From Candidatus Helarchaeota ASGARD archaeon Hel_GB_B (lineage in GTDB: Archaea; Asgardarchaeota; Lokiarchaeia; Helarchaeales; HEL-GB-B), in contig SUPR01000002.1 in assembly GCA_005191425.1 (NCBI GenBank), positions 2,453 to 66,452 on the forward strand: a stretch of 64,000 bases of DNA, given 5' to 3'. Position numbers and translations under genes: made by a program. Each line of letters begins with the position of its first letter. The first letter of the stretch is position 1. The notes beneath the pieces are model-generated. The model saw nothing but the letters and a program-made list of their open reading frames with translations, searched no databases and had not been told where the DNA came from. Below, piece by piece: positions 34,200-47,504 of the stretch.

Positions 34200-34330
34200 T
34201 GGACCGGCCGGGAATTTCGTCTAAGTCCACAAAGAAATCCAAACGAATTTCATTTTTTTAGAGGACTAAATTTCGAACCCGGGGCCTCCAGATTGCAAGT
34301 CTGACGATCTACCAACTGATCTACCGGCCC
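34200..34330 (-). tRNA. tRNA-Ala (anticodon UGC) interrupted by a ~58-nt intron inside the T-loop (between positions 59/60)
   Basis: Minus strand reads GGGCCGG-TA-GATC-AGTTGGTA-GATC-G-TCAGA-CTTGCAA-TCTGG-AGGCC-CCGGG-TTCGAA[58 nt]T-CCCGG-CCGGTCC-A. The G3:U70 pair is the alanine identity element. The intron contains a 5-bp internal helix (AGTCC/GGACT). Confidence 0.75.
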
Positions 34331-38278: not shown

Positions 38279-38797
38279 ATGGCAAATGATGGTGAATATT
38301 GTTTTAACCACTGCAATGGATATTGTTGTACAAAATACACCGTATTAATCACTACTGAAGATATTAAAAGAATATTGGAAAATACACCCTTAAAACCCAC
38401 ACAATTTTTAACATTATATTATGTAAACGAAGAAATTTTAAAGTTATTCCCTAAAATTACCTTGGCATCTGAAGATATTGTATTGGGCTTACGGCAAAGA
38501 CCAGATGGGTCTTGTATTTTTTATTTAAAAGAGCTGGGTTTATGTGGAATTCACCTCTATAAACCAATGGTCTGTCGAACATATCCATTTACATTGAATG
38601 ATAAGGGTCAATTAATAAGACTTGAAAATATTTGCCCTGGAGAATGGTACCCAAAAAATATTGAGGACTTAAAAGACCAAATTCGGCAAGCATGGTATGA
38701 AATGGAAATAAATAAAAAGAAAATAGAAATGTGGAATAAAAAAAATTCTGACCTAGGTTTTAATGATCTAATTAAATTTATTTTAAAAGATATCTGA
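38279..38797 (+). CDS. Putative Fe-S/zinc-binding protein with N-terminal Cx3Cx3CC cluster (YkgJ/UPF0153-like)
   Basis: CFNHCNGYCC near the N-terminus and additional Cys (CGIHLYKPMVC). Confidence 0.35.
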   Translation: MANDGEYCFNHCNGYCCTKYTVLITTEDIKRILENTPLKPTQFLTLYYVNEEILKLFPKITLASEDIVLGLRQRPDGSCIFYLKELGLCGIHLYKPMVCRTYPFTLNDKGQLIRLENICPGEWYPKNIEDLKDQIRQAWYEMEINKKKIEMWNKKNSDLGFNDLIKFILKDI

Positions 38798-38846
38798 AAA
38801 AAATTAGTATACACAATTGTATAAATATTTTAATCTTTAAGATTTG

Positions 38847-39101
38847 TTATACTAATAATTCTCGTTTATATTTTTCAGTTAATTCAATTCTGTTTTTATT
38901 TTTTACAATTCTACTTACATAAATTATTCCTAGAATTTCTAATTTAAAAAGAATTTGTTGTAGATCTTTCATTGTCATAAATTTATATTCATTTTTTAGT
39001 AAATTCAATAATTCTTGGTCTGTTATAACTCCTTTATTTTTTAATAAAGCAAAAATTATCGAATCTTTGATTGGTGTTGGGTTCCATAATCCATTATTCA
39101 T
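38847..39101 (-). CDS. Hypothetical small protein (84 aa), possibly winged-helix-like
   Basis: Supported by the ORF only. Confidence 0.2.
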   Translation of the reverse strand: MNNGLWNPTPIKDSIIFALLKNKGVITDQELLNLLKNEYKFMTMKDLQQILFKLEILGIIYVSRIVKNKNRIELTEKYKRELLV

Positions 39102-39137: not shown

Positions 39138-41336
39138 TTATGTATATGGCATGTGTTTTTGAGGTCCGACTATCTGTCTAAACTGACTTTCCATATTGTC
39201 ATAAAACCTCTTCATTTCTGGAGTAATAGTCGGGTGTATTTTTTTCATTGCCTTTTTAAAATGTTTTAATGAAACTTTTTTAGCTTTTATGTCCTCTCTT
39301 AATGCAATTAGCCCAGCCTCATCACAGCAACCTTCGATATCACTTCCTGCAAACCCTTCCATTTCATGGGCTAAATCTTCAAGATTTACATCGTCATCAA
39401 GTGGCATTTCTTTTGTATATATTTTTAGTATTTCTAATCTTGCTTTTTCATCAGGTGCATCGACTTTAATTAATCTATCAATTCTTCCAGGTCTAATTAA
39501 TGCTGGATCTATAATGTCCAATCTATTAGTTGCTGCAACAATAACTACATCTCTTGATAAAGTTTCTAATCCATCTAATTCAGTTAAAAGTTGAGAAATT
39601 ACTCTGGTCGTGACATTTGAATCTCCAAACATCATTCCGCGTTTAGGCGTAATTGCATCAATTTCATCAAAAAATATTATTGCAGGTGATGCCATTCTAG
39701 CTTTTCTAAAAATTTCTCGAATAGCTTTTTCTGACTCTCCTACCCATTTACTTAATACTTCTGGGCCTTTAACACTAATAAAATTAGCTTCACTTTCGCT
39801 TGCTATTGCGCGGGCAAGTAACGTTTTTCCACACCCTGGTGGGCCAAATAGAAGTATTCCGCGAGGCGGTTTAATACCCATTCTCCCAAATACTTCAGGT
39901 TGTTGTAAGGGCCATTGGACTGCTTCGATTAATTCTTGTTTAACCTCTTCAAGTCCTCCTATATCTCTCCAATGAACATTTGGGACTTCAATTAAAACTT
40001 CTCGAATTGCGGATGGTGCAATTTCTTTTAGAGCACTTCTAAAATCTTCCATATTTACAAAAATTTTTTCTAAAATATCTGGAGGTATTTCCTCCTCATC
40101 AAGGTCTATTTCAGGTAAAAACCGTCGGAGCGCTTTCATAGCTGCTTCTCTACATAATGACATTAAATCTGCGCCAACAAAACCATGAGTCAGGTCAGCC
40201 ATTTCGTTTAAATCGACATCTTCTCTTAAAGGCATACCTCTAGTATGAATTTGTAATATTTCTAATCTACCATTTCTGTCTGGAACTCCAATTTCTATTT
40301 CTCTATCAAACCGTCCGGGCCGTCTTAAAGCTGGGTCAAGAGCATTTGGTCTATTTGTAGCTCCAATAACGACAACTTTACCTCTGGTACGTAGCCCGTC
40401 CATTAGCGCCAACAACTGAGCGACGACTCGTCTCTCGACTTCTCCTGTCACTTCTTCACGCTTAGGGGCTATAGCATCAAGTTCGTCAACAAAAATTATA
40501 CTAGGCGCATTTTTTTCAGCCTCATCAAATATACTTCTCAATCGTTTTTCAGACTCACCATAAAATTTACTCATTATTTCGGGCCCATTAATGGGAATAA
40601 AATGAGCTTCTGATTCATTTGCAACAGCTCTTACGAGTAAGGTTTTACCACAGCCTGGCGGGCCACGGAGTAAAACTCCTTTTGGTGGATCTATACCTAA
40701 TCTCTTAAATAATTCTGGATGTTTGAGCGGCAATTCGACCATTTCACGAATTCTCTGAATTTTATCGTCTAACCCGCCAATATCCTCATATGTAATAATT
40801 GGTATTCCTGTAGTCATTTCATCCATAGGTCGATCACTTACATGTAAGATAGTTGTGTTTTTTACAACTACAATTCCTCTAGGCCTAGTTGATACAATCT
40901 GAAATGGTACTTCACGGCTAATACCAATTGAAATTAAAATAGTATCTCCTTTTGTAAGTGGATAATTAAGTAATTTACGTTTAACAAAGCTTTCGACATA
41001 AGGATCAGCTCTAATTCTCACAGAAGTTGGGGCAAGGATCACGGATCTAGCAGTTTTTTCATTGGCTTTTTCTATTATTATTTTTTCCCCCAAACTGACA
41101 CCTGCATTTTTTCTCAATCGCCCGTCCATCCTTATTATTCCTCTTCCTTTATCTTCAGGAAATGCTGGCCATGATATCGCAGCTGTTGTTCTTTTACCTG
41201 TTATTGCTACAATATCACCTGTCCTTATATTTAATTGCTTCATTGTATCTCCATCAATCCTAACAATTGATCTTCCAACATCTCTCTGTTTAGCTTCTGC
41301 TACTCGAAGTTCAAATTTCTCCATTTTTATTCCCAA
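39138..41336 (-). CDS. cdc48: CDC48/VCP-like AAA+ ATPase (two AAA domains)
   Basis: Two Walker A motifs (GPPGCGKT twice) and two SRH regions. The N-terminal double-psi barrel is typical of CDC48. Confidence 0.9.
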
Positions 41337-43716: not shown

Positions 43717-44973
43717 TTAAATTATATTTTTAATAAAAGTTATCTCTCTTCTATCTAATTCATAAAATTTTTTTAAATATTCGCTTTGGGGAGATCTCTT
43801 CTTAAGAATTAAGGCAATAAATGGAAGATGTTTTGTGATAATTTCCTCAGGACTACTCTTTAACTTCTTTCTAATTTTATTTACAATGTTCATTAATTCC
43901 CCTGATCTTGATGCATACATTTTATTTAAGAAATTACTGGGCGAATACCTAAAATATTGAACAAAATGGGACTTATTCTCGTTTTTAATTGGTAGTGAAA
44001 CGCCTGAAGAAATTATATCTATAAAATATGGTAGCATTGACCATGATATTTTCTCTGGATTGCTTGCAATTGCGTTATAAATTAAATCAGCTTTTGATAA
44101 TGCTTTATATGACTTAAATAGCGTTCGCGAGGAAACTTTATGATATGGGAGAATTTCATTTACCCAATGTAAAAGTAGTCCCCAATCAATGTCTAGCATT
44201 GAAACTGCTCTATTACATGTTTGAATATCTTTATTTTTAAATATTATATTTAAAACTTCAAATATATTTTTCTCAGTATCTCTTACTTGCTGAATCTTTC
44301 TTACATCTGACAATGTTAATTTTTTCTTACCTTCACAAACTGCTTGGAGGTCATTTATTGCAGACCGCAAATCATTATTTACATTAATTGCAATTTCAGT
44401 AAGCGCTTTTGGATCGGCTTGTATTTTTTCGGCAATGCAAATTTTCTGAAGTACCTTTACTATAGTTGGATTTTTTATTTTTTGAAATTTTACGATTTTT
44501 ATCCCGCTTCTTTTATCTCTTAATGACCTGAACTTTTTGTCATGTACATTGTTAGCTGTAAAAATAATTGGAAATTTCGATAATTTAACCATCTTTAACA
44601 TGGCTGATAATCCCCCCCTATCTTGATTCCCACTTAATCCATCAACCTCATCTATTAAATATAATTTATTTACTCCCTTTTTAATAGTCCGTGTAGCCAG
44701 ACTTGGAATAAGTTTTTCTTCAATGCTTTTTTTATTTCTAACATCACTAGCATTTATTTCAATAACATCAAACCTATTAAGCTTAGCTAATACATTAGTA
44801 GATGAGGTCTTTCCACATCCCGGAGGTCCTAATAATAATAGTGCTTTAATTTCGTTTTTACTTGACCATTTTGTTAAAAATTCTTTTATAACCTTAACAG
44901 CATTAGGATTTCCTACTATATCTGATTCTTTTTTGGGTGCATATTTTATTGTCCATAATTCCTTTTCAAGCAT
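43717..44973 (-). CDS. rfcL: Replication factor C large subunit
   Basis: AAA+ Walker [13 protein letters not shown], Walker B YLIDEVDG. ~418 aa. Immediately downstream of the RFC small subunit gene. Confidence 0.85.
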   Translation of the reverse strand: MLEKELWTIKYAPKKESDIVGNPNAVKVIKEFLTKWSSKNEIKALLLLGPPGCGKTSSTNVLAKLNRFDVIEINASDVRNKKSIEEKLIPSLATRTIKKGVNKLYLIDEVDGLSGNQDRGGLSAMLKMVKLSKFPIIFTANNVHDKKFRSLRDKRSGIKIVKFQKIKNPTIVKVLQKICIAEKIQADPKALTEIAINVNNDLRSAINDLQAVCEGKKKLTLSDVRKIQQVRDTEKNIFEVLNIIFKNKDIQTCNRAVSMLDIDWGLLLHWVNEILPYHKVSSRTLFKSYKALSKADLIYNAIASNPEKISWSMLPYFIDIISSGVSLPIKNENKSHFVQYFRYSPSNFLNKMYASRSGELMNIVNKIRKKLKSSPEEIITKHLPFIALILKKRSPQSEYLKKFYELDRREITFIKNII

Positions 44974-44988
44974 TATAATTATCGCCTT

Positions 44989-46050
44989 TTAATCTTTAAT
45001 TCCAAGAGTAGCAAGATATGTTAAGAAAAATGAAAGTTGTAATTCATTATTAGATGGAACGCTAATATATGAATCGAATTTTGATATTTCTATAGAAATT
45101 TTCTTCTTTAATTCTTCTGTAATAGTTGATTCCATTAAAAATTTATTAAAAGCTTTTAATATCATTTTTCCTGATAAACTTTTTTTAATAAATAGATTTC
45201 TTAAAAAATTCCGCGCATCAACTATATTACCACTTATAGCTAATTTTAGACATTCCCCAATTTCTTTAATTTCTAGTTTCTTTATCATTTCATATATAAA
45301 ATTTTCTGTAATTTTTTTCTTATAACAACTTGCTGCTTCTAATATATTAATTGCAATATTCATATCATTATTAGAATAATAATAAATCAATTTTAAAGCA
45401 TTTTCAGTGATATTAATTTCCTCTGATTCGCATATATATTTAATTTTACTTAAAAATTGTTTTTGACTTAATGGAAATAATTTTAAATTTACACATCTCG
45501 ACCTAATTGGGTCTATTATATTTGAAACTGAATTTGCCACCAATATAAATCTACATATCCTACTATATTTTTCCATAGTCCTCCTTAATGCCTGCTGTAT
45601 TATTCTTTCTAATTTATCCGCTTCATAGATGATCAAGATTTTGTGGTCAGCAGAATCTAACGTTTTAGTTTTTGGATAGTTTCTGATAATTGTAAATAAT
45701 ATATCTATTCTACTTGGACTTTTAGACTTGCCGTGTCTTTTTAGACTTATTTTGCTAGCCTCTACCCAATATGGCATGTATTCATAGTAGAAATTCTTAC
45801 TATCTGAAGCAAAAATCTCTTCAATATTCGCTTTATATGTTGTTCCATATAAGTCATGCACCAAACTTGATACTATTGAGGTCTTTCCTTTAGGATGAAA
45901 ATAACCTACATTTCAAATTCCCGGAGGACCATATAACAACAAGTTCGGTAAATTTCCGCTTTTTACATATTTTTTAATCTGATTTATTATATGTTCTTGT
46001 CCTATAATATTTTCTAATGTATCTGGACGGTATTTTTCTATCCATGACAT
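44989..46050 (-). CDS. rfcS: Replication factor C small subunit; the reading frame is interrupted by an in-frame TGA within a 27-nt insertion in the Walker-A codons
   Basis: Minus-strand translation from ATG at 46048-46050 gives [68 protein letters not shown]... and continues into the 291-aa track ORF (DEAD-like IIYEAD Walker B, SRC motif). Confidence 0.8.
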
Positions 46051-46457
46051 TTTTTTTACCAAATATATTTATACCTATTTCATTATAAAAAATTATTAAA
46101 TTATAAAATTTAAATTATCTCCAGTTAAAATAATTTATTTTAAGATTCCTTTACTTACTAAATTTGATTTGATTATTTATTCGTATAAAAATATTTTTTC
46201 TTGGTTAAATATGTCCTTTAAATAAATTTTTTCTTGAATTATCAATCTTAAATTTTAGCGATCATTATAATTTATGTGTTTAAAAGTTCTTTTTCTTTTA
46301 CTCCATTAAATTTGTAGTTATAATTAAATTTAAAAATGATAAAAAGAGAAATTTATAAATATTTTATTGTCAATTATGATACGAAATAATAAGGACATTT
46401 TTCACATCATTTTAATTTATAATGATTTAATTAGTAATCTGAGAGGCGAAAAAAAAT

Positions 46458-47504
46458 ATGAGCGAAGCCTTGAAAAATTTTAGAGAATTTCGCGGAGTAT
46501 GGATTGCGAGAATAGCTTCAATTCCGACTTTATGCTTTTCATTTTTAGTTTTAATTTTAGGTCCCGCAGGAATAGCAAATGGCTATGTTGGTGGGATCGA
46601 ATGGGCTACCCAGTACTCTCACAACTTTGTTCTTGGTGATAATATTGTCCATAATTTATCTTTTGCATATTTAATTTCAGTTGGTATTATAATCTGTGGT
46701 CTGATTGCATTTATTGTTCCATGGTTCAGAGGAAAAACTGGTCTAAGAATTAGCGGATTTATTACTGGATTTATTTCTATCATATTAATTATTTTATACA
46801 TTTTATATTTATCTTTTATAAATCAAGTAAATTTTGCGGTTCGAAATGACCCTGACGCAGGGGCTACAATTATTAATGCATATAGCATTAGTGGTTTGAT
46901 ATGGAATATTGTTTATGGATTATGGATTACTGGCTTAACTTTTTCGTTTTTATTTTTTATTAGCGCAGGATATTTAATAAATGCCAGTCCTATTCCATTT
47001 GCAAAATTTAGAGCCAAAAGAATGAAAATATTGACAAGAGCAGATGCAGCGGAACGAGCTGGAAAACCAAAAGAAGCTATTACTCTTTATAAAATTGCAG
47101 GGGATTTATCTATGAAACTCAGGGAAGAAGATAAAGCGACAGAATATTATCAGAAATCTAGGGAGATCGAAGAAACTGAAATTATCGCAGTTTTAGAACG
47201 TGAAGAAGAGATAAAAAGAAAAGAACTTGCAGAACGAAGAGCAAAATTAGAAGAAGAAAGAAAAGAAATTCTGGTTAGAGCAGATCAAGCAGAAGAAAAA
47301 AAGCAGTATTTGCGAGCGTCCACACTTTATCGTGATGCTGCCGAAAAAAGTGTTGATTTAGGTGAAAAAAAGTTAGCAGCTCAATTTACAGCTAAAGCAA
47401 AAGAACTAAAAAGAAAAGCAATGAAAATTAAGAAAGAAAAAGAAAAAGCAGAAAAGGAAGAAAAAGCAGAAAAAGAAGAAAAAGCAGAAAAAGAATCAGA
47501 ATAA
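46458..47504 (+). CDS. Hypothetical membrane protein with a C-terminal highly charged coiled-coil tail ending in EKAEKEEK repeats
   Basis: The N-terminal half has ~4 TM helices. The C-terminal half is K/E/R-rich helical with an 18-bp x3 tandem repeat. Confidence 0.3.
   Translation: MSEALKNFREFRGVWIARIASIPTLCFSFLVLILGPAGIANGYVGGIEWATQYSHNFVLGDNIVHNLSFAYLISVGIIICGLIAFIVPWFRGKTGLRISGFITGFISIILIILYILYLSFINQVNFAVRNDPDAGATIINAYSISGLIWNIVYGLWITGLTFSFLFFISAGYLINASPIPFAKFRAKRMKILTRADAAERAGKPKEAITLYKIAGDLSMKLREEDKATEYYQKSREIEETEIIAVLEREEEIKRKELAERRAKLEEERKEILVRADQAEEKKQYLRASTLYRDAAEKSVDLGEKKLAAQFTAKAKELKRKAMKIKKEKEKAEKEEKAEKEEKAEKESE
47448..47501 (+). repeat. 18-bp tandem repeat x3 (GCAGAAAAAGAAGAAAAA-like) encoding EKAEKEEK units at the end of the CDS
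   Basis: Direct visual repeat in the sequence. Confidence 0.6.

Follow-up and report, generated by a model that had tools for sequence, protein, structure and literature searches.

How can a gene for an essential part of the replication machinery carry a stop codon inside its most conserved motif? The question is raised by a stretch of 64,000 nucleotides (nt), referred to here as the window, from the Asgard archaeon Candidatus Helarchaeota archaeon Hel_GB_B (GenBank assembly GCA_005191425.1, contig SUPR01000002.1). Here the minus-strand gene rfcS, which encodes the small subunit of replication factor C (RFC), is interrupted by a 27-nt insert in the codons of its Walker A loop, or P-loop. The insert is very probably an intron of the bulge-helix-bulge (BHB) type, spliced by the BHB pathway. 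A tiny BHB-type intron was the first option listed in a preliminary description of this DNA, and it is strongly supported by the predicted fold, by the restoration of the reading frame in seven lineages and by covariation.

The interrupted rfcS gene

The minus-strand frame runs through ...LLLYGPPGI (GGT CCT CCG GGA ATT, 45930-45916), meets a TGA, continues through AAT GTA GGT TAT TTT CAT CCT AAA (NVGYFHPK), and resumes as GKTSIV..., with GGA AAG ACC TCA encoding GKTS. Translation of the unspliced mRNA from its ATG ends after 45 residues at this UGA. Open reading frame (ORF) calling splits the gene into a 49-amino-acid (aa) ORF (45913-46062) and a 291-aa ORF (44989-45864), the second of which begins at a TTG eight codons past GKTS. 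GenBank also holds two adjacent hypothetical proteins: exon 1 is annotated as the separate 45-aa protein ACTSQO_06225, and exon 2 as the truncated protein ACTSQO_06230 (P0001 in the protein search below).

Once the 27 nt are taken out, the gene encodes an RFC small subunit of 344 aa in which the Walker A motif, GPPGIGKTS, is whole and Pfam recognises the domains AAA, Rep_fac_C and DNA_pol3_delta2. This spliced product, together with an uninterrupted rfcL gene for the large subunit, bears out the earlier statement that the rest of rfcS and the downstream rfcL are intact. The coordinates first assigned to the anomaly, 45898-45930, fare less well: the insert is real, but besides the exon codons upstream they take in just two-thirds of it, at the 5' end.

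A predicted bulge-helix-bulge fold

Folding exon, insert and exon together had been proposed as a check. The minimum free energy (MFE) structure of 45880-45950 on the minus strand, computed with RNAfold, is the canonical hBHBh' motif, base for base. Its outer helix pairs GGUC (45927-45930) with GACC (45880-45883), and the exon-exon helix h pairs UCC (45923-45925) with GGA (45886-45888). The central helix H, of 4 base pairs (bp), joins GGGA (45919-45922) to UCCU (45892-45895), while the intron hairpin h' is formed by UGAAA (45911-45915) and UUUCA (45896-45900) around a 10-nt loop (45901-45910).

In archaeal tRNA splicing, each 3-nt bulge is cut by the endonuclease between its second and third bases, as in the canonical 37/38 intron geometry that Marck and Grosjean reportedly treated in 2003. 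The same cut rule is applied here, calibrated on a tRNA-Ala intron of the same window. The predicted cuts join GGA-AU to A-GGA-AAG, which reads GPPGIGKTS. Defined in this way, the intron opens with the last base of the 5' bulge and closes with the middle base of the 3' bulge; exon 1 ends in ...GGU CCU CCG GGA AU, and exon 2 begins with the base that completes codon 45 and goes on to encode residues 46-344. These structure-based boundaries (45890-45916) lie one base upstream of the TGA...AAA insert (45889-45915) that had been delimited at first. The restored GPPGIGKTS is unchanged by this shift, because ATT and ATA both encode isoleucine and both removals yield an identical protein.

Conservation across Asgard lineages

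A search of 5.8 billion proteins with the spliced RfcS finds its closest matches in Asgard proteins labelled Helarchaeota or Lokiarchaeota, which form six clusters (P0001-P0006) with 58-99% identity. All six lack the N-terminal 14-19% of the query and are truncated, at 281-314 aa. A 45-50-aa ORF precedes the truncated rfcS in nearly every assembly, and a search with the exon-1 peptide brought in a seventh lineage, L209. Six lineages besides the window, from several samples in NCBI, JGI, ENA and Logan, carry a break in rfcS at the same codon phase; their full-length orthologs share 58-62% protein identity, and synonymous sites are near saturation. All sources are metagenome-assembled. Additionally, the independent assembly GCA_054387555.1 (L208) matches the window at 99.6% identity over 2.8 kb, with 11 mismatches, no gaps and the identical 27 nt. 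The TGA-bearing insert in the Walker A codons reported at the outset is confirmed by this second assembly and by the six lineages interrupted at the same site.

The inserts differ in length and content. The window carries 27 nt with one TGA, L002-L004 carry 24 nt with two stops, and L005 carries 33 nt with three stops, TAA among them. The other four inserts are frame-shifting: 28 nt in L001, 26 nt in L206, 25 nt in L207, where the insert begins with TAA, and 26 nt in L209, where the first stop comes four codons in. The insertion was rightly called in-frame in the window, but with lengths that are not multiples of three in four of the seven lineages, this is incidental and not a property of the element. 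A stop occupies intron bases 2-4 in six of the seven (TGA in five, TAA in L207), and L209 is the exception.

The layout of helix, 4-bp helix and 3-nt bulges is present in all seven lineages, with an h' of 4-8 bp in the orthologs and loops of about 3 to about 13 nt whose sequence is little conserved. In every lineage, the four frame-shifting ones included, the canonical BHB cut gives an in-frame GPPG[I/T]G[K/R]TS. The orthologous contigs share the gene order TruD - hypothetical - rfcS - rfcL - EF1beta - aS21 - GGR; the part from TruD to EF1beta is kept in the longer contigs L001-L005, and what little flank L208 has agrees with it.

Two further scans looked for relatives. Among the matches listed in a genome-contig scan with a four-protein alignment, which used generic N-terminal patterns, there are only distant intron-less RFCs of 27-40% identity and no close relatives. 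A metagenome scan with the junction pattern GGNCCNCCNGGNAYNTGAAAT matched at least 120 stretches, and by tblastn none of those listed is an rfcS.

RfcS of this clade is unusually divergent, with identity falling from at least 58% inside the clade to at most 37% for other archaeal RFC small subunits. With 344 aa it is also long, as most of the next-best full-length matches have about 311-333 aa. The L207 sequence, an ENA scaffold, changes after rfcS codon 327 to unrelated, GC-richer sequence (about 1085-1952), in which a lipoprotein-like signal peptide replaces rfcL. This scaffold is probably a chimeric metagenome assembly downstream of rfcS, with the intron region unaffected.

Table 1. Features of the rfcS locus and of the tRNA-Ala gene, in window positions
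Feature	Position	Strand	Details and basis
rfcS, whole gene	44989-46050	minus	interrupted reading frame
rfcS exon 1	45917-46050	minus	ATG at 46050; 44 codons plus AU of codon 45
Predicted BHB intron, 27 nt, UUGAAAUGUAGGUUAUUUUCAUCCUAA, phase 2	45890-45916	minus	MFE fold, strict BHB scanner, structure table
rfcS exon 2	44989-45889	minus	A, then GGA AAG ACC UCA ... to the stop codon
In-frame UGA	45913-45915	minus	intron bases 2-4, within the 5' arm of h'
Complete hBHBh' motif	45880-45930	minus	RNAfold MFE; RNAalifold consensus; covariance model
5' three-base bulge, AUU	45916-45918	minus	predicted endonuclease cut between 45917 and 45916
3' three-base bulge, AAA	45889-45891	minus	predicted cut between 45890 and 45889; invariant in seven of seven lineages
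rfcL, RFC large subunit	43717-44973	minus	intact; 15 nt downstream of rfcS; canonical rfcS-rfcL operon
tRNA-Ala(UGC), G3:U70	34200-34330	minus	interrupted in the T-loop at position 59/60
tRNA-Ala BHB intron, 58 nt	34214-34271	minus	H UUCG:CGAA; bulges AAA and AUU

Covariation and selection

A structure-anchored alignment of the seven lineages shows standard pairs in 95.5% of its cells. Each helix contains one double compensatory change, between U:A and A:U in h, between A:U and U:A in H, and between G:C and A:U in h'. The observed covariation score is reached by 4 of 500 shuffles. In controls with slid partners, pairing falls to 18-56%, double changes disappear and covariation scores come near baseline. 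RNAalifold, given no prior structure, yields the identical consensus on the seven lineages.

The coding sequence is under purifying selection on both sides of the insert. Pairwise ratios of nonsynonymous to synonymous substitution rates (dN/dS) are 0.05-0.23 for exon 1 across six lineages and 0.07-0.19 for exon 2, while the proportion of synonymous differences (pS) reaches 0.4-0.8, near saturation. Because exon dN/dS is low at such pS values, the gene is functional and the lineages are old; the bases that form the BHB are kept nonetheless. These genes are very AT-rich, and in about 1 kb of coding sequence they contain no further stops or frameshifts.

Specificity within the window

A strict scanner requires a perfect 4-bp H, an h of at least 3 bp, an h' of at least 4 bp and a length of 14-70 nt. 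On both strands of the window it finds 330 BHB-shaped motifs, or about 4.5e-5 per specified pair of cut sites. Excision is needed to join long open frames in two of the 330, the rfcS site and 38801-38853 on the minus strand. The latter is a false candidate: what would be its downstream exon is of low complexity and runs antisense to the gene at 38279-38797. Run blind, the scanner recovers the same rfcS site in L001, L206, L207 and L208. Looser BHB scans of the window are uninformative, since they return hundreds of matches, barely more than shuffled sequence, that fuse neighbouring genes.

A covariance model built from the seven junctions matches its own site in the window with 80.2 bits (E 4e-18), and the next best match reaches 12.9 bits (E 0.73). 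The idea of a mobile element was rejected: nowhere else in the window is there a sequence close to the 27-mer, and the covariance model matches only itself.

Other genes for P-loop ATPases in the window are uninterrupted, namely rfcL and a large ATPase-like ORF with GPPGCGKT (39138-41336, minus strand). The intron is thus confined to rfcS and is not general to GPPGxGKT codons.

Observations that weigh against an intron

Several points count against splicing of a BHB intron. First, splicing is deduced here from sequence alone. The energy of the fold is ordinary, at -11.6 kcal/mol compared with -13.07 +/- 2.75 kcal/mol in shuffles (z = 0.53). Loose BHB shapes are frequent in a window of 28% G+C, with about 780 per strand against about 660 in shuffled sequence. 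Covariation is limited to three pairs among seven related sequences, and some lineages show relaxed features: an A.G mismatch in H of L002, and in h' a U.C in L005 and a U.U in L209. Moreover, the database of 5.8 billion proteins holds no full-length product, spliced or intron-less, at 58% identity or above. No genes for the tRNA-splicing endonuclease EndA or the RNA ligase RtcB were found in those parts of the window that were scanned with Pfam. Because shape and stability alone prove nothing, the case rests on the exact placement of the motif and on its conservation.

Alternative explanations

Two rival explanations survive slightly better than the others, and both are very improbable. The first is programmed translational bypass, in which the ribosome would skip the insert during translation, as it does in phage T4 gene 60 and at the byp elements of yeast mitochondria. 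Several features would fit such a hop: a stop lies directly after the interruption, within a hairpin, in six of the seven lineages, insert lengths vary and are not multiples of three, and GGN codons flank both sides. The codons themselves argue otherwise, as a hop that restores the full Walker A motif would have to start from AUU, ACU, AUA or ACA and land on AAA, a mismatch in all seven lineages. A hop from GGA to GGA would give GPPGKT, two residues short of GxxxxGK[ST]. Bypass also leaves the 4-bp helix with its two 3-nt bulges and the compensatory changes unexplained.

The second, equally doubtful, is a conserved split gene, whose two products, a 45-aa N-terminal peptide and a C-terminal fragment of about 290 aa, would be translated apart and then assemble or act independently. 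Gene callers do give two ORFs in every lineage, and purifying selection acts on both parts, but the break falls inside the Walker A loop and the conserved BHB geometry has no place in this explanation. In a split gene, the conserved GK[TS] codons would stay untranslated, because every start codon of the second ORF comes after them.

A recent pseudogene, or an assembly or sequencing artefact, is less probable still. An interrupted ORF known from metagenome assemblies naturally raises this suspicion. The artefact option, however, conflicts with the identical 27 nt in an independent assembly and with six other lineages interrupted at the same site. Pseudogenisation is hard to reconcile with the low dN/dS of both exons at nearly saturated synonymous sites and with a coding sequence otherwise free of stops and frameshifts. 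Both options had been raised in the preliminary description, and neither holds.

Stop read-through or recoding, by selenocysteine, pyrrolysine or TGA reassignment, so as to add residues to the P-loop, can practically be dismissed: it suits the window's in-frame insert with its single TGA, but four orthologous inserts (25, 26, 26 and 28 nt) are frame-shifting, others hold two stops (L002) or three (L005) or start with TAA (L207), and 8-11 residues inserted in the Walker A loop would destroy it. TGA is a normal stop here, ending 7 of 42 long ORFs in the window, which agrees with the earlier judgement that reassignment of this codon is unlikely.

Two classes of intervening element are also excluded. 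An intein does not fit inserts of only 24-33 nt, each with one, two or three stops and four of them frame-shifting. Two oversized RFC matches, L020 and L022, were considered as carriers of P-loop inteins, and both proved to be normal genes with no interruption. Self-splicing group I or group II introns have catalytic cores of hundreds of nucleotides, far more than the 24-33 nt of this element, and Rfam has no match near threshold at 45800-46000.

A tRNA-Ala intron and the splicing machinery

The tRNA-Ala(UGC) gene of the same window is interrupted in its T-loop (Table 1). Unspliced, it is recognised by Rfam only as a 57-nt partial tRNA at 34274-34330, and ARAGORN calls nothing. In silico excision of the 58-nt intron with the same cut rule gives a 73-nt tRNA-Ala that ARAGORN calls cleanly. 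The tRNA-Ala intron at position 59/60 suggests that BHB splicing is in use elsewhere in this genome. Asgard archaea are reported to have a broad-specificity (alpha-beta)2 EndA with an L1 loop (PMC5829648) and very intron-rich tRNA genes (PMC11291895).

The next-best match of the covariance model, which is not significant, lies inside this tRNA-Ala intron (34221-34270, minus strand). A UGAAAU...GAUUUC hairpin is common to the tRNA-Ala intron and several orthologous rfcS introns, although the window's own rfcS intron does not have it. The pattern occurs four times in the window, where about one occurrence is expected. A common origin of the tRNA-Ala and rfcS introns is not supported by these observations, which are at most a weak hint of intron transposition.

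Proposed mechanism

In the rfcS pre-mRNA, the Gly-Pro-Pro-Gly codons of exon 1 are predicted to pair with the 3' end of the intron (GGGA:UCCU) as well as with the Gly-Lys-Thr codons of exon 2 (UCC:GGA and GGUC:GACC). Together with the intron's own hairpin, UGAAA:UUUCA, this pairing would leave a 3-nt bulge on each strand, exactly 4 bp apart. EndA would then cut after the second base of each bulge, and RtcB would join the exons to give GGA-AU^A-GGA-AAG. The mature mRNA would encode the 344-aa RfcS with its Walker A motif GPPGIGKTS, and the unspliced mRNA only a 45-aa peptide. Both the cleavage and ligation steps and the assignment of EndA and RtcB as the enzymes are inferred.

The near-universal stop in the intron may, speculatively, block synthesis of an RfcS with a disrupted P-loop that could poison the pentameric clamp loader. 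A more far-reaching proposal, drawn by analogy and rather unlikely as it stands, is that the intron does more than persist as a tolerated passenger and serves as a regulated switch of the HAC1/XBP1 kind. Such a switch would tie the synthesis of the clamp loader, and so DNA replication, to tRNA-splicing activity or to translation status, with the stop selected against dominant-negative RfcS. The proposal extends to a wider set of hidden Asgard mini-introns in protein-coding genes, which would now be called as pairs of hypothetical ORFs.

Comparison with known systems

BHB introns are standard in archaeal tRNA and rRNA. In coding sequences, the known case is the BHB intron in the pre-mRNA of cbf5, the gene for the pseudouridine synthase aCBF5, in the Crenarchaeota (Desulfurococcales and Sulfolobales; Yokobori 2009, PMC2738675; also Watanabe 2002, Yoshinari 2006). 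In 2020, "only one example" of a coding-sequence BHB intron was on record (PMC7714728), and the reference list of a 2025 paper (PMC12397907) still cites the cbf5 intron as the case. No report of mRNA BHB introns in Asgard archaea or Helarchaeota was found in the literature searched, which omits most subscription journals. Within that literature, rfcS would be only the second protein-coding gene family in Archaea with a BHB intron, after cbf5.

The two introns have much in common. Each is a short BHB intron in the coding sequence of an archaeal housekeeping gene, is vertically inherited in its clade, and restores the reading frame on excision; both host lineages are assigned the hetero-oligomeric (alpha-beta)2 EndA. 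They differ in the protein, which is a clamp-loader ATPase instead of a pseudouridine synthase, and in the host, which is an Asgard archaeon instead of a crenarchaeon. Unlike the cbf5 intron, the rfcS intron lies inside a Walker A loop, is near the BHB minimum at 24-33 nt, and has a near-universal stop at bases 2-4. Splicing has been demonstrated by experiment for cbf5, whereas for rfcS it is deduced.

The rfcS intron shares its motif and cut rule with archaeal tRNA BHB introns, including the 59/60 intron of tRNA-Ala in the window, and EndA and RtcB presumably process both. Non-canonical BHB introns are abundant in the tRNA genes of Asgard archaea and of the Thaumarchaeota, Aigarchaeota, Crenarchaeota and Korarchaeota (TACK) (PMC11291895, PMC5829648). 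Unlike these, the rfcS substrate is an mRNA, in which splicing competes with translation and the exon arms of the helix are constrained by the codons for GPPG and GKT. An mRNA is also the substrate of the tRNA-splicing endonuclease in Haloferax volcanii, where a BHB intron lies in the 5' untranslated region of HVO_1309 (PMC7714728). That intron sits in the untranslated leader and interrupts no protein. As a euryarchaeon, H. volcanii would carry an alpha'2-type EndA by the classification of PMC5829648.

By mechanism, the nearest parallel in eukaryotes is the splicing of HAC1 and XBP1 mRNA. The rfcS intron would resemble those of HAC1 and XBP1 in being a very short coding intron removed by a protein endonuclease and a tRNA ligase, free of any spliceosome, with a change in the translated product. 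HAC1 and XBP1 mRNAs are processed by the endonuclease IRE1 and the ligase RtcB or Trl1, and the XBP1 intron is 26 nt long. Unlike EndA, IRE1 recognises twin stem-loops and not a BHB, and HAC1/XBP1 splicing is a regulated stress switch. This unconventional mRNA splicing in eukaryotes has been reviewed (PMC13149111). The likeness is an analogy of mechanism, with no evidence that the introns are homologous.

Inteins occur in the P-loop of euryarchaeal RFC small subunits, and the remark made at the outset that this loop is an intein hotspot is plausible as background. Both these inteins and the rfcS intron would be selfish or neutral inserts in the most conserved, least deletable part of the same gene, removed after transcription. 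An intein, however, is translated in frame as a protein element of about 130 residues or more and leaves after translation. In contrast, the rfcS element has 27 nt and a stop, and must be removed at the RNA level. Bypass elements, known from T4 gene 60 and as the byp elements of Magnusiomyces mitochondria, need matching take-off and landing codons. Like the rfcS inserts, they are short non-coding gaps in an ORF that vary in length, start at or near a stop and contain a hairpin. However, rfcS lacks matching codons, and bypass elements lack the conserved bulge-helix-bulge geometry.

Implications

If the insert is a BHB intron, rfcS becomes the second host gene for such an intron in coding sequence, and the intron would be the first of its kind in Asgard archaea. 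Its host gene is essential for replication, and the intron would be fixed throughout a clade of deep divergence. More than 20 years of papers on archaeal RNA splicing cite a single coding-sequence BHB intron, that of crenarchaeal cbf5. The rfcS intron would also mean that tRNA-splicing enzymes process mRNA as well in the lineage from which eukaryotes arose: Asgard archaea are the closest known relatives of eukaryotes, which use the same ligase, RtcB, to splice XBP1 mRNA.

The locus exposes a blind spot in annotation, since GenBank splits rfcS into two hypothetical proteins and the protein database contains only truncated forms of its close homologs. It further provides a canonical and compact 51-nt substrate for biochemistry, and suggests a simple search recipe, namely BHB motifs whose excision joins two ORFs.

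A neighbouring conserved gene

Between TruD and rfcS, the window contains a 348-aa ORF on the plus strand (46458-47504), with a membrane-like N-terminus and a repetitive tail rich in Lys and Glu, EKAEKEEKAEKEEKAEKE. It has no Pfam match. An ORF of 337-346 aa occupies the same gap between TruD and rfcS in all orthologous contigs, and the 348-aa ORF is apparently a gene of unknown function that is conserved in this clade and specific to it.

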